Part shown: positions 26,345-45,155 of the stretch, in pieces
Layout: every line of letters starts with the position of its first letter
How positions within the stretch are numbered: position 1 is the first letter of the stretch
NCBI GenBank assembly: GCA_040390065.1
Contig: JAZJZE010000001.1
Span: 32,001-96,000 of the forward strand
DNA length: 64,000 nt
Reading direction: 5' to 3'
DNA from: a bacterium
GTDB taxonomy: Archaea; Thermoplasmatota; E2; JACPAO01; JAHFTW01
Notes under the pieces: generated by a model
Told to the model about the DNA's origin: nothing
Database searches by the model: none
The model's input: the letters and a program-made list of their open reading frames with translations, nothing else
Made by a program: the position numbers and the translations under genes

Positions 26345-27466
26345 CTAGCCGAAGAAGCCCTTGCGTTTGCGCGGTTTGACTTCGGTTCCGAGCTCCTTGG
26401 CCAACTCTTCGAGGAGTTCGCGGGCGCGGGCACTCGGCTTGTCGGGGACGTCGATGCGCAGCCTGACGTGGAGGTCGCCTCGACCATGCCCCCGTAGCGA
26501 TGGCATGCCCTTGCCCTTGACGCGGACGGCGGCTCCGGTCTCGGACCCCGCGGGGATGGGTACCTTGAGTGGGCCGTCGAACGTGTCGAGGTCGAGTTCT
26601 GCGCCGAGGACCGCCTGCGGGATCGAGATGGACATCTCCGTCAAGAGTTCGGTGCCTTCGCGGTGGAACCGGTCATGCTCGCGCACCTCGATCTGCACGT
26701 ACAAGTCGCCGTAGGGGCCGCCGCGCGGGCCCACCTCGCCTTGGCCGTTGACGCGCAGGCTCTGGCCGGTCTCGATGCCGGGCGGAATCGTGACCGTGAC
26801 GGCGCGACGATGCCTCTCGTGGCCAGTACCGCGGCACGTGTGGCAGGGCTTCTCGATGGTGCGACCCTCGCCGTTGCACGTCGGGCACGTCGTCACTTGG
26901 CTCATGGTGCCAAAGGGAGTGCGCACCATGCGTTGCACACGGCCTTCGCCGCCGCAGGACGTGCAGGCGGACACCTTGCTGCCTGGTTCGGCGCCGTTGC
27001 CTTCGCACGTCTCGCAGCCTTCCAGCCGCCAGTACTCGATGCGCGCCTCGGTCCCGTGCAGGGCCTGCTCGAGGGAGATGGCATGTGCGACTTGCAGGTC
27101 GCGGCCGCGGCCCGGCCCGCCACCGCGGCGCCCACCGCCGAAGCCGAACATCTGGGAGAACAGGTCCTCGAATCCCATGCCGCCGAAGAGGTCCTCGACA
27201 TTGATGTTGCGGTACAGGTCGTCGGCGGAGTACTGCGAATCGATGCCGGCGTGCCCGAGCTGGTCGTAGCGCGCCCTCTTGTCCGTGTCCGACAGCACGG
27301 CATACGCTTCGGAGAGCTCCTTGAACTTGTCCTCGGCGTCGGCAGCCTTGTTGCGGTCCGGGTGCAGTTGGATGGCGAGCTTGCGGTAGGCCTTCTTGAT
27401 GGCGTCGGCATCCGCGTCGCGCCCCACGCCAAGCACGTCGTAGTAGTCCCGCTTGCCCGTGGCCAC
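26345..27466 (-). CDS. dnaJ: Chaperone DnaJ (type I)
   Basis: DYYDVLGV, HPD, G/F region, four CxxCxGxG repeats. Confidence 0.97.
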   Translation of the reverse strand: MATGKRDYYDVLGVGRDADADAIKKAYRKLAIQLHPDRNKAADAEDKFKELSEAYAVLSDTDKRARYDQLGHAGIDSQYSADDLYRNINVEDLFGGMGFEDLFSQMFGFGGGRRGGGPGRGRDLQVAHAISLEQALHGTEARIEYWRLEGCETCEGNGAEPGSKVSACTSCGGEGRVQRMVRTPFGTMSQVTTCPTCNGEGRTIEKPCHTCRGTGHERHRRAVTVTIPPGIETGQSLRVNGQGEVGPRGGPYGDLYVQIEVREHDRFHREGTELLTEMSISIPQAVLGAELDLDTFDGPLKVPIPAGSETGAAVRVKGKGMPSLRGHGRGDLHVRLRIDVPDKPSARARELLEELAKELGTEVKPRKRKGFFG

Positions 27467-27512: not shown

Positions 27513-28007
27513 CTACGGGTTCGTGAACTTGCCCACGGTTGCGAGCAGGAGGCCGGCGACGACGAGGGTCACGAGGTAGTAGCCGACGTTGACGAAGTAG
27601 ACGGGCCACTTCTGCCGCTCGAAGGCGACGCGGTTCAGGTTGACGGGCACCATGAATCCCAGCCAGGTGAAGACGCCGCCCATGACGCCGTCCATCGGGG
27701 AAAGGCTGTAGTCGGCCTTGCCGTGCGTCGCGGTGTTCCTGTACGCATCCTGGTACACCCAGTAGTCGTGGGCGAGGACGAACATGAGAAGGAACGCGCC
27801 GACGAGCATCAGGATCATCGACGTGGCCATCTCTTTCGCGGGCGGCTTCGGCATCGTGGCGGGGTCGAGCCCCTGGTCGCGCATCCAGATCTTCCCCGTC
27901 GGCGACCACTTCGAGTACCAAAGGAAGCCGATGACGACGTTTGCAACGAGCGCGGCGGCGAGGCCGAGCCAGTTGAAGCCTGCAAAACTCCAAGCAGTGG
28001 GGTCCAT
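27513..28007 (-). CDS. DUF1761 family membrane protein
   Basis: NWLGLAAALVANVVIGFLWYS...GKIW, WLGF, FE.QKW...NVGY. Confidence 0.8.
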   Translation of the reverse strand: MDPTAWSFAGFNWLGLAAALVANVVIGFLWYSKWSPTGKIWMRDQGLDPATMPKPPAKEMATSMILMLVGAFLLMFVLAHDYWVYQDAYRNTATHGKADYSLSPMDGVMGGVFTWLGFMVPVNLNRVAFERQKWPVYFVNVGYYLVTLVVAGLLLATVGKFTNP

Positions 28008-28069: not shown

Positions 28070-28516
28070 TCAGAGCGTCGCGAAGATGAGCCCGGCCACG
28101 AGGATGTTCACCAGCTGGTACCCGCCGTTGATGGCGACCAGGCCCATGGGGCGCTTCTCCCAGGCCAGAGAGCCGAGAAGCTGCGGGACCATGAAGCCCA
28201 TCCAAAAGAGGAGGGCCCAGCCCATCAGCTCGCCGACGTCGTTCTGGTGGACCGTGATTCCGCCACCGCTGACCTTCTTGCCGACCGTCAAGCCGAGCGC
28301 AAGCATCATGAGGAACGACCCGACGAGCATCATGACGAGGCCTTTCATCATCTCCCCGGAGTCCGGCTTGGCCTTCGGGTCCATGCCCATGTAGCCCATC
28401 CACATCTTTCCGGTGGGGAACCAGCCGGCGTACCAGACGAAGCCGATCACGAAGTTTGCAACGATGGCGACGGCGAGAGCGACCCAATTCATGTATTCGA
28501 AGTCGAAGGCATTCAT
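28070..28516 (-). CDS. DUF1761 family membrane protein, tandem paralog
   Basis: NWVALAVAIVANFVIGFVWY...GKMW, WMGF, WEKRP...INGGY. Confidence 0.8.
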   Translation of the reverse strand: MNAFDFEYMNWVALAVAIVANFVIGFVWYAGWFPTGKMWMGYMGMDPKAKPDSGEMMKGLVMMLVGSFLMMLALGLTVGKKVSGGGITVHQNDVGELMGWALLFWMGFMVPQLLGSLAWEKRPMGLVAINGGYQLVNILVAGLIFATL

Positions 28517-28663
28517 GGTGTTCACAGCCCAGGAGGGCAAACGGAACTCCGCCAGGTGCTATACAAGGGTGCCAGACTCCATCGCGTCGCCAACCTGCAG
28601 GCGATGCACCGGAAGCGCCAGGGCGGCCCAGAGGCATAGTTGTAAATGGCCCGCGAACCAATA

Positions 28664-28950
28664 GGAGAGGGCTCTGCGGGGTCAAACCCACAGGGAAGGA
28701 CAATCATTTCGGTGATTGGCCCTCCAACACCCAGGAGAGGGGCGCGGCTTACTCGCCCCCAACCGACGTGGCCTGGCGGCTACGACCCGGTCAAGTGAAC
28801 CAGAGGGTTGCTAAGAGGCGAAAGCCGACTTGGCGACTAGACGGGAAAAACCTGGATGGCCTCGGTCTTCGGACCAAGGAAGCCGAAAGGCGTGGAGCCG
28901 TGGAATCGCTCGGTGCCGCACCGACCTTTCCACGTTCGAGGGGATTTTTT
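28664..28950 (+). ncRNA. Unassigned highly structured non-coding RNA (~270-285 nt)
   Basis: Nested helices with UUCG and GAAA tetraloops on the + strand, G-U pairs, upstream TTGTAAAT box (28640-28647) and downstream T-tract. Confidence 0.72.
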
Positions 28951-29007
28951 CCGGTCGACGTCCCGTGCGTCGGCGCCGCCGCCTTTTTGAACCAGTCGAG
29001 GCGTGCC

Positions 29008-30147
29008 GTGCGCGGTGCTCGCTTGAAGCCCGCCCTTTCCGTTGGCGTCCTGCTCGTTCTCGTTGCAAACGTCGTGCCCGCCGGCGCCCAGATGCCGCCC
29101 GCCGACCCGAGCTTGACCTGGTACGTCCATAACGTCACAAGCACGAGCGGCGGGTCGGGGCCAACACTGAGCTTTACGGCCCCGGGCTCCGATGAAGTGG
29201 CCGTCGCTGCCTCCTGCACGACGGCATGCGCCGGCGCCGCCGCCCTCGTCCATCACGCGGATGCCGAGACGGGCTTGCCGGTGGCCCTGGTGGCGACGGG
29301 TACCGGCGGGGAGGCGCACGTCTGGGTCAAGAGCTACCAGGGCGGCGCTGCACCGGGGACGAAGGCGACCGTGACGGTCTTCGCCGACGGCGTCTCCATC
29401 GCGACCGGCACGGCGACGATGGACGTCGTCGCCGCCACGGTCGAGTACGTCATCACCCTCGACTTCAAGGCGGCCTCGATTGCAATGGGCGCGAAGATCT
29501 CCATGGAGCTGGCGGTGCAGGATTCGCACTGCACATGCTACCTGCCCGTTGCGTACGCAAAGGGCGTCGACGCCACGTACGCCTGGCGCTTCACGTTGCC
29601 CGTCACGGTGAGTGGCGCGACGACATCGGGGGCCAACCACTATGCCAGCGAGAGTGGCCCGAGCCTGCATGCGACTCTCGCGTTGCCGACCGCAACGACG
29701 GCGAATTACTTCTACAACTGGACCACCGGCTTCTCCGCCGTGGAGATTTCCTACAGCGCCCAGCCCACAGCCGGGTCGGTCCACTTCCTCGTCCTCGATG
29801 CAGACAACAAGACGCTTCTGGACAAGGCCCTGTCCGCCGCCGAGGACCGGTCCGTCCAGGTGCCGGCGGCCACAGCCGGCGTCTGGCACGTCAGCATCCA
29901 ACTGACCGGGTTCCAAGGCAATGCCACCCTCGTCATCGTCTCGTCCCAATTGACACCGCCATCGTCGTCGCCGCCGGGCGGCTCGTCCGGGCCAGGCCCG
30001 ACCGACGGGGGAAATCCAGGCACGCCCTCCGGCGGCTCAAACCCGTCCCCGTCTCAGACCAGCAAGGGCTCGCCCGGAATCGATGCCGTCCTGTTTGCCG
30101 CCGTGCTTGCGGGCTCGGTGCTGGTGGCCCGACGCCGCCAGGCGTAG
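29008..30147 (+). CDS. Secreted surface protein with Ser/Pro/Gly linker and C-terminal sorting signal
   Basis: Signal peptide PAGA|Q, beta-rich domains, KGSPG-TM-RRR tail; TTTTTGAA box about 20 nt upstream of GTG 29008. Confidence 0.8.
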   Translation: MRGARLKPALSVGVLLVLVANVVPAGAQMPPADPSLTWYVHNVTSTSGGSGPTLSFTAPGSDEVAVAASCTTACAGAAALVHHADAETGLPVALVATGTGGEAHVWVKSYQGGAAPGTKATVTVFADGVSIATGTATMDVVAATVEYVITLDFKAASIAMGAKISMELAVQDSHCTCYLPVAYAKGVDATYAWRFTLPVTVSGATTSGANHYASESGPSLHATLALPTATTANYFYNWTTGFSAVEISYSAQPTAGSVHFLVLDADNKTLLDKALSAAEDRSVQVPAATAGVWHVSIQLTGFQGNATLVIVSSQLTPPSSSPPGGSSGPGPTDGGNPGTPSGGSNPSPSQTSKGSPGIDAVLFAAVLAGSVLVARRRQA

Positions 30148-30187
30148 CCAGCACAGGCTTTTTGCCCCGGCCGGCTTGGGCCGCGCA

Positions 30188-30556
30188 ATGGTCACCATCG
30201 GCAAGGGCCTGCTGGACTCCGCGGTGCACGAATTCTTCGACGCCGTGCGCAGCTACGACGCCAAACGCGCCGCCGCCGTTCTCGCCGAGGATGCCGACTT
30301 CGACAGCCCGTGGAGCGGCCACCTCACGGGCAAGGCCAACGTCGAGGCGTTCCTCAAGACGTGGCTCTCGGATCCGGTGAAGCGCCCGACGTTCACCATC
30401 ATCGACGTCGCCGGCGACGGCGCCATCGCACGCCTTCGCGTCTCGATCTCCGGCCGCTTCGGCAAGGCCCCCGAGCACTGGAACCTGACCGTGCTCTGCC
30501 TTAAGCACGTCGTGCACCAAGTCAAGTTCGCGGGCGATGCGAAGGCTGGTCACTGA
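30188..30556 (+). CDS. SnoaL/NTF2-like protein
   Basis: VHEFFDAV..YD......LAEDA.F..P....GKANVEAF pattern. Confidence 0.8.
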   Translation: MVTIGKGLLDSAVHEFFDAVRSYDAKRAAAVLAEDADFDSPWSGHLTGKANVEAFLKTWLSDPVKRPTFTIIDVAGDGAIARLRVSISGRFGKAPEHWNLTVLCLKHVVHQVKFAGDAKAGH

Positions 30557-31687: not shown

Positions 31688-33661
<1,974 letters not shown>

Positions 33662-45079: not shown

Positions 45080-45155
45080 GCGCTCGTAGTCTAGCTTGGA
45101 TTCAGGCACCGGCCTCCTAAGCCGGACCACGTGGGTTCGAATCCCACCGGGCGCG
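45080..45155 (+). tRNA. tRNA-Arg(CCT)
   Basis: Acceptor GCGCTCG/CGGGCGC, anticodon arm CCGGC-CTCCTAA-GCCGG, T arm GTGGG-TTCGAAT-CCCAC; no encoded CCA. Confidence 0.93.

Follow-up and report, generated by a model that had tools for sequence, protein, structure and literature searches.

A conserved structured RNA gene of uncultured Thermoplasmatota that matches no family of Rfam 15

We analyzed a stretch of 64,000 nucleotides (nt) from a Thermoplasmatota archaeon, termed here the window (contig JAZJZE010000001.1 of assembly GCA_040390065.1, positions 32,001 to 96,000 of the forward strand). It contains a conserved structured RNA gene, the family of which is absent from Rfam 15 and was not found in print by our literature searches. 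The RNA of about 275 nt is placed at 28671 to 28944 on the plus strand of the window, where both ends are approximate and are based on contigs from RNA libraries; R2, one of two covariance models of the family, matches 28696 to 28938 with 158.4 bits. Probably, this locus is a gene in its own right, at approximately 28671 to 28944, for a stable and highly structured non-coding RNA of a family that had not been described before. An earlier model-made annotation of the letters of the window, referred to here as the sequence-only reading, had proposed an independently transcribed, undescribed archaeal structured RNA at this place, and the Rfam, covariation, and RNA-library results given below support that proposal. 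In the following, G000 stands for the genome of the window, other G numbers stand for genomes of relatives, L numbers stand for loci or contigs, and f and g denote families and genera.

The 4227 models of Rfam 15 include those of riboswitches, ribozymes, raiA, OLE, HEARO, and introns. A scan of the whole window at gathering thresholds gave no match over the RNA; the sole match at this level was a transfer RNA (tRNA) gene at 45080 to 45155 on the plus strand (53.1 bits). At E ≤ 10, the region from 28400 to 29200 matched only two models of unstructured vertebrate long non-coding RNAs (E values of 1.5 and 8.9), which we consider noise. Scans at the same threshold of 10 further homolog loci from other genera or families also gave no match over the RNA, so that the Rfam comparison suggested by the sequence-only reading turned up no relative even at this permissive level. 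That reading had also set the RNA apart from RNase P RNA and signal recognition particle (SRP) RNA. Both of these are encoded on other contigs of G000, namely, the archaeal RNase P RNA (RNaseP_arch, RF00373) on contig C9 with 124.5 bits (cutoff, 84) and the SRP RNA (Archaea_SRP, RF01857) on contig C2 with 141.3 bits (cutoff, 96.5), and neither covariance model, the first with P4 and the conserved regions and the second with the Alu domain and helix 8, matches the candidate at E ≤ 10 over 28400 to 29200. Full-text literature searches, which did not extend to subscription papers and supplements, retrieved no earlier description of such an RNA. Since a complex fold is conserved in uncultured archaea and no described family corresponds to it, the RNA is a good candidate for a new functional RNA class.

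Fold of the RNA and its support by covariation

When folded as a single sequence, the plus strand reached −135.5 kcal/mol (z of −3.53), and 0 of 100 shuffled sequences were as good; the minus strand also folded better than its shuffles, but to a lesser degree (z of −2.82). From 13 sequences aligned with MAFFT alone (A1), RNAalifold predicted 36 pairs, including the long-range helix PA, and 16 of these pairs showed compensatory change. The fold model was tested on two alignments: A6, a MAFFT alignment of 31 sequences, and A7, a model-fitted alignment of 45 sequences that covers three families as well as metagenome contigs. In A6, 94.5% of the 1166 cells were standard pairs, compared with 35 to 43% when the partners were slid by 1 to 3 columns. 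Furthermore, 28 of the 38 pairs in this alignment had changed on both sides, and 0 of 500 column shuffles reached any of the five measures. In A7, 96.2% of the cells were paired versus 35 to 42% in the slid controls, and 31 of 38 pairs were compensatory; A7 leans toward the model, so these pairing values are somewhat inflated, and A6 is free of that lean. In this way eight helical elements, with the loop-loop contact counted among them, were tested by covariation, and the strong covariation among homologs bears out the check that had been proposed. In total, 36 columns were conserved in at least 43 of the 45 sequences, and nearly all of them are located in loops and junctions.

From 5′ to 3′, the fold consists of H1, H2, the 5′ strand of PA, the 5′ strand of PB, H3, H4, the junction AAGUGAACC, the 5′ strand of PC (CC), GAGG, and H5, followed by UGAGG, the 3′ strand of PC (GG), AAAAA, the 3′ strand of PB, H6, H7, the 3′ strand of PA, and H8. 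As judged from these pairings, PA closes a four-way junction with PB, H6, and H7, and PB a second junction with H3, H4, and PC/H5; the latter is lined by invariant purine-rich strands. The architecture is therefore not that of three beads in a row: one multi-helix junction is nested in another, and a contact between two loops clamps them. The sequence-only reading had described three consecutive domains, and in this it was mistaken, as the homologs show nested junctions with a long-range helix. Two of its pairings are replaced as well. The GAGGGC/GCCCTC helix that was to close the first domain is not kept in homologs, and its GCCCTC strand pairs with TGGAG at 28892 to 28897 in the 13- and 31-sequence alignments; the CGGCTT loop, for which a pseudoknot with AAGCCG had been suggested, pairs through its CGGC with GCCG at 28915 to 28918, with compensatory changes. 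All the strings that it quoted are present in the sequence, and most of its helices stand. Those confirmed by covariation in homologs are CCAGG/CCTGG, GGGGCG/CGCCCC, CAATCAT/GTGATTG, GCC-GAAA-GGC, CGTGGAA/TTCCACG with its inner hairpin, and the three variable hairpins (H4, H5, and H6 of the present model).

The two long-range helices form the frame of the fold. The 5′ strand of PA (CUCCAA, 28722 to 28727) pairs with GUGGAG at 28892 to 28897; all six pairs show compensatory changes, 96.6% of the cells are paired, and the last pair occurs as all four Watson-Crick types (GC in 20, UA in 9, CG in 7, and AU in 4 sequences). Within it, PB pairs CACCCAGG (28728 to 28735) with CCUGGAUG (28851 to 28858), with compensatory changes in 7 of 8 pairs and 92.8% of the cells paired; PB is the CCAGG/CCTGG helix mentioned above extended by three pairs. 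The inner junction contains H3 (28739 to 28759), the stem of which is paired in 100% of the cells, with 5 of 6 pairs compensatory, and which carries the nearly invariant loop CGGCnnACU, with loop positions invariant in 45 of 45 sequences. The variable hairpin H4 (28763 to 28791) forms at least 4 bp in 44 of the 45 homologs, which present 44 distinct sequences at this site. It is followed by the conserved junction AAGUGAACCAGAG (28793 to 28805), where A, AA, CC, A, and G are each kept in at least 43 of 45 sequences and the CC is predicted to pair with GG at 28844 to 28845 as helix PC; the PC pairs never vary, and covariation therefore cannot test this helix. The variable hairpin H5 (28806 to 28838) folds in 45 of 45 sequences at lengths of 19 to 178 nt and thus tolerates large insertions, up to about 150 nt. 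The conserved junction GGGAAAAA (28843 to 28850), with GG, A, and AA in at least 43 of 45 sequences, leads back to PB.

The outer junction comprises H6 (28860 to 28879), a variable hairpin with a UUCG loop in the window that forms at least 4 bp in 44 of 45 sequences and, like H4 and H5, differs in sequence between almost all homologs, and H7 (28882 to 28891), a short hairpin in which 3 of 3 pairs are compensatory and the GAAA tetraloop is found in 35 of 45 sequences. Downstream of PA, H8 (28900 to 28933) combines an outer stem, GUGGA/UCCAC, in which 5 of 5 pairs are compensatory and 98.2% of the cells are paired, with an inner hairpin that carries the loop UGCCGCA and forms at least 4 bp in 39 of 45 sequences. 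The kissing contact joins CGGC of the H3 loop (28745 to 28748) to GCCG of the inner H8 loop (28915 to 28918). Over its four pairs, 99.4% of the cells are paired, and in A7, 6 sequences have AU in place of GC and 2 have UA in place of CG. Diverged paralogs carry the kissing pairs CGACC/GGUCG and GCGACC/GGUCGC, and the two near-identical tandem copies of L305 differ by a double change in the contact, GGC/GCC versus GAC/GUC. Upstream of PA, H2 (28698 to 28721) is flanked by conserved GGACA and UGGCC; its four foot pairs are 89.8% paired with compensatory changes, and its top forms at least 4 bp in 32 of 45 sequences. H1 (28672 to 28695; 9 bp with one C·A mismatch) is a peripheral, optional hairpin. 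It corresponds to the CTGCGGG/CCCACAG hairpin of the sequence-only reading, which is a real hairpin and is present with differing sequences in most congeners; several genera, as well as families f34 and f16, lack it. In homologs the core measures approximately 200 to 290 nt.

We assign the RNA to the plus strand, in agreement with the sequence-only reading, on several sequence features. G·U cells outnumber A·C cells, with 65 versus 31 in A7 and 51 versus 22 in A6, and H7 carries a GAAA loop. The TATA-like box TTGTAAAT (28640 to 28647), read directly in the sequence, precedes the inferred 5′ end by about 24 to 31 nt, which is the expected spacing of archaeal promoters, and in the alignment A/T-rich boxes are found at the equivalent place in homologs. 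A T6 tract (28945 to 28950), also read directly, follows the RNA and is likely a termination signal, oligo-T tracts being archaeal terminators. Both flanking signals had been noted beforehand, as had a separate box of the next gene; this box is A/T-rich and precedes the GTG of that gene by about 24 nt. Heuristics for promoters (the A/T-richest 8-mer) and terminators (pyrimidine runs) were too noisy, and no counts derived from them were used. Also discarded was a terminal helix between the 5′ and 3′ ends, CCCGCGAAC with GUUCGAGGGG, which appeared in the single-sequence fold: just a few congeners share it, and the strand on its 5′ side would precede the inferred start of the RNA. Readings of the junctions as a K-turn, an 11-nt tetraloop receptor, or a G-quadruplex were made by eye only, and none of them fits consistently.

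Distribution, copy number, and gene neighborhood

By BLASTN, the RNA was detected in 13 of 61 relatives, G000 included, which correspond to 11 of the 12 other congeners and one other genus. For more distant searches, two covariance models were used: R1, which covers the 5′ core (152 positions) and was built from 11 sequences, and R2, which extends from GGACA to H8 (225 positions, from 31 family sequences) and omits H1 and the leader. R1 detected the RNA in 31 of the 32 genomes of the family of G000 (f1; G000 counted), representing 10 of 11 genera. It gave no hit in the two other families of the order (0 of 6 genomes) or in other families of the class (0 of 119 genomes). R2 was applied to 151 genomes sampled across the phylum and gave accepted hits in two families outside the class, f34 (4 of 6 genomes) and f16 (1 of 9); in the order to which G196 belongs, 4 of 6 genomes carry the RNA. 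A scan of the genomes of 185,579 species with a degenerate pattern returned 76 loci, of which R1 confirmed 23, and 22 of these are titled as Thermoplasmatota, Thermoplasmata, or Thermoplasmatales archaeon; the other 53 are chance matches in bacteria, haloarchaea, or other archaea. The remaining confirmed locus, L095, is titled "uncultured Halobacteriales archaeon"; it scores the same as congener G004 (119.2 bits), and its taxonomic label is probably wrong. Two covariance-model matches were dropped as chance, a partial bacterial one among these 53 loci (L069, 21.1 bits) and one of R2 in family f27 (G208, 27.6 bits) that lies inside a long coding-like open reading frame (ORF). In viral contigs, 0 of 58 pattern loci were confirmed. 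Among metagenome contigs, 3 loci were confirmed among the 80 listed of at least 119 stretches, a figure that is no gauge of abundance. As far as searched, the RNA family is confined to a few uncultured lineages of Thermoplasmatota.

The RNA is single copy in G000, and several genomes carry two or three copies. Three copies follow one another at distances of 420 to 430 nt, with gaps of about 200 nt, in G206 (L172, contig C8, 1501 to 2578); each has its own GAAAA-TATA(T/A)A box approximately 25 to 30 nt before the conserved start and a hairpin with a T-rich tail after it, and there is no ORF between them. A tRNA gene (1078 to 1162) is located about 340 nt upstream, so that the tRNA and the three copies form a small cluster of stable-RNA genes. 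On contig L305, two copies stand in tandem at a distance of about 530 nt, and of the three copies in G196, two are separated by 1.5 kb. In genus g4, a diverged second copy (L124 to L126) has an extra 3′ hairpin and is situated just upstream of a gene starting VEFDVFFSISQTPVDGHTP, the product of which matches luciferase-like monooxygenases weakly (19.4 bits versus a cutoff of 27.9). In genus g11 (L041, L043, and L044), two copies are fused head to tail and a third is found elsewhere; H8 of the first fused copy runs into H2 of the second, and the promoter box is absent between them.

The genome of G000 comprises 2.68 Mb in 50 contigs and is 89% complete. Its RNA gene is contained in the intergenic stretch from 28517 to 29007, between a gene for a DUF1761 membrane protein on the minus strand, which begins at 28516 (Pfam PF08570), and a gene for a signal-peptide protein on the plus strand with a likely GTG start at 29008. 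Two tandem DUF1761 paralogs (27513 to 28007 and 28070 to 28516, both on the minus strand) lie between the RNA and the DnaJ gene (26345 to 27466, minus strand), so that the second of them separates DnaJ from the first. Such a pair was found in 11 of the 36 loci examined, which are presumably those of genus g1. Downstream of the RNA is a gene for a SnoaL_2-domain protein (30083 to 30553, plus strand), and the ORF at 31688 to 33661 (minus strand) looks Hsp70/DnaK-like, as named by eye from the translation. The latter shares its strand with dnaJ at a distance of about 4 kb, and the RNA, signal-peptide, and SnoaL-like genes between them are on the opposite strand. In family f34, a gene for an FKBP26-type peptidyl-prolyl isomerase (confirmed with Pfam) is divergent from a G196 copy (L175, contig C13, 6973 to 7929, plus strand), and a 265-amino-acid ORF next to the RNA of G250 (L178, 4354 to 5148, minus strand) looks FKBP-like by eye only. 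The neighbors in G254 and G262 are of neither the dnaJ nor the FKBP type. The recurrence of chaperone genes (dnaJ in f1 and the FKBP26 type in f34) is at most a hint of a role in stress or protein folding.

Stand-alone RNA, leader, or RNA machine

Sequences that resemble the RNA are present in RNA libraries, as the sequence-only reading had suggested be checked. Four metatranscriptome runs from four studies (one labeled groundwater, two freshwater, and one soil) contained assembled contigs of 44 to 254 nt that are 85 to 99% alike and map to 28671 to 28944. One contig of run X2 begins at 28671, directly after adapter-like letters, which we take to be an Illumina adapter followed by C5. There was no library contig on 28400 to 28647 or 28958 to 29205; the flanks of relatives would not align anyway, so this gap counts for nothing.

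Alternatively, the RNA could act in cis, as a leader through which the same-strand genes behind it are controlled; it would then be a large riboswitch or an element that senses a protein or a tRNA, with the contact between H3 and H8 as its switch. We regard this as improbable, in spite of several observations that weigh against a stand-alone gene. Among 36 loci of f1, the same-strand genes after the RNA include the signal-peptide gene (14 loci) and/or the SnoaL-like gene (19 loci), and within the class the range of the SnoaL-like protein approximates that of the RNA (28 of 31 other f1 genomes versus 0 of 89 in other families). In G013, a spacer of only approximately 44 nt, which contains a T6 run, lies between H8 and the start codon of the SnoaL-like gene, and the g4 paralog precedes the gene of the luciferase-like oxidoreductase (weak Pfam match) by about 45 to 90 nt. 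The library contigs come from relatives and show presence in RNA libraries, not transcription, strand, ends, or level; run X1 may be the source sample and hence not independent. To these points are added the lean of A7 and the failure to detect the RNA in two f34 genomes, G191 (95% complete) and G230, which indicates that it is not universally required. The leader view also draws on the short spacers to downstream genes, which carry T-rich tracts, on a G196 copy (C34) that is followed by a signal-peptide ORF, and on a topology like that of cobalamin riboswitches, in which the core is closed by one helix and a 3′ hairpin kisses a core loop. A leader should always occupy the 5′ untranslated region (UTR) of the gene that it regulates, with genes of related function downstream, and this arrangement is seen in much of f1 but not in the arrays, in copies without a downstream gene, or in G007. 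The tandem arrays (G206 and L305) speak against a leader, the copies of G206 having their own promoter box, a terminator-like hairpin, and no intervening ORF, and behind G196 copies and the third copies of g11 no same-strand gene follows. The RNA of G007 is on another contig than the SnoaL-like gene, and no RNA is near the latter; in G014, there is no RNA within 1.5 kb upstream of that gene; and the SnoaL-like protein was found in 0 of the 5 RNA-positive genomes of f34 and f16. The downstream genes vary by lineage, the neighbors in f34 and f16 being a radical S-adenosylmethionine enzyme, FKBP26, a Cys/Met pyridoxal phosphate enzyme, and an ATP-binding cassette ATPase (named by eye), and no riboswitch model of Rfam matches. 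Because of the arrays, the copies without a downstream gene, G007, G014, the absence of the SnoaL-like protein in f34 and f16, and the unrelated neighbors, we think it likely that the RNA is a trans-acting gene product and that the gene arrangement in f1 is inherited synteny. The SnoaL-like gene is usually on the contig and strand of the RNA; its product was considered as an obligate partner and rejected as a general rule, given G007, G014, and its detection in 0 of the 5 distant genomes.

Within the reading as a stand-alone RNA, a narrower proposal is that of a ribozyme, or of an RNA that self-assembles through complementary loops into a dimer or cage like OLE, ROOL, and GOLLD. The 36 near-invariant nucleotides concentrated in the junctions fit such a proposal, and the loops of H3 and H8 are mutually complementary, so that they could pair either intra- or intermolecularly, two arrangements that covariation cannot separate. 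The loop pairs differ among paralogs of the same genome and are mutually compatible, the g11 copies are fused head to tail with no promoter between them, and a recent report describes kissing loops as holding the OLE, ROOL, and GOLLD assemblies together (10.1101/2024.12.08.627333). At about 275 nt, however, the RNA is far below the size of ROOL or GOLLD, and the RNA-library contigs contain no cleavage or ligation junction, the joints seen in them being length variants from relatives; we consider this proposal unlikely, albeit less so than that of a leader. Much more remote is a highly diverged form of a known archaeal RNA (RNase P RNA, SRP RNA, or a fragment of ribosomal RNA) or a guide or bridge RNA of a mobile element. 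The size is near that of archaeal RNase P and SRP RNAs, and several copies are present in some genomes. Nevertheless, G000 encodes canonical RNase P and SRP RNAs elsewhere, there is no clan-level match at E ≤ 10, the RNA is single copy in G000, and the synteny is stable, with dnaJ as the divergent upstream neighbor in 19 of 36 f1 loci. The copies examined had no transposase or nuclease gene next to them, and the viral pattern loci were all negative (0 of 58). Where an omega RNA or bridge RNA would adjoin an IscB, TnpB, or IS110-type gene and be multicopy at the ends of elements, the neighbors in G000 are DnaJ, DUF1761, and SnoaL-like genes.

As a stand-alone product, the RNA would act in trans as an abundant cellular RNA. 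The loop of H3 kisses that of the 3′ hairpin H8 and thereby clamps the molecule into one compact body, the pre-organized core of which could be presented to a conserved partner, i.e., a protein, a metabolite, another RNA, or its own copy. It might be a ribonucleoprotein core or an RNA-only machine that binds this partner through the invariant junctions. A more far-reaching idea, which we offer tentatively and give a somewhat better chance than that of a ribozyme or self-assembling RNA alone, is that of a first archaea-specific class of "ornate" orphan RNAs: an abundant RNA machine in which the invariant purine-rich junctions would be the catalytic or the ligand- or protein-binding core and the complementary loops would either hold the fold together or join copies into dimers or higher assemblies.

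Comparison with known structured RNAs

The closest parallels are found among orphan RNAs of bacteria. The raiA motif RNA has a conserved core, pseudoknots, variable stems, and a closing helix, is named after a gene that it usually adjoins, and is of open function (PMC12968392). The candidate likewise stands alone, measures a few hundred nucleotides, and has a compact core, a pseudoknot-type contact, variable peripheral stems, and a closing helix. In contrast to raiA, which is bacterial (Bacillota and Actinomycetota), the candidate differs in its helix order and conserved motifs and has no match in Rfam, and its tertiary contact is made by the kissing loops of two hairpins, one in the core and one on the 3′ side. 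OLE, ROOL, and GOLLD are RNAs of about 600 to 800 nt from bacteria or phages, whereas the candidate is archaeal and about 275 nt long, and its self-assembly is only putative. It resembles them as an orphan "ornate" RNA that is recognized by covariation, conserved junctions, and kissing loops (10.1101/2024.12.08.627333).

Two comparisons concern RNAs of established function. Among these, cobalamin riboswitches possess a multi-helix core closed by one helix, and the loop of a 3′ hairpin kisses a core loop (L5-L13). The CCGGAGG of the candidate resembles part of the B12 box, a likeness that is short and seen by eye. Unlike cobalamin riboswitches, the candidate lies within a 5′ UTR at some loci but not at others, is followed by terminators of its own, forms tandem arrays, and has no Rfam hit at E ≤ 10. 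With the archaeal RNase P and SRP RNAs it shares a similar size, a stable structure, and a promoter of its own. To our knowledge, large intricate RNAs with dozens of invariant nucleotides are nearly always ribozymes, riboswitches, or the cores of essential ribonucleoproteins, and we know of very few such classes in archaea beyond ribosomal RNA, tRNA, RNase P RNA, and SRP RNA. The size of the candidate, approximately 230 to 280 nt, suits direct cryo-electron microscopy, chemical probing, and activity screens and offers a tractable route to what may be a new function of RNA in a phylum of which few members are in culture.

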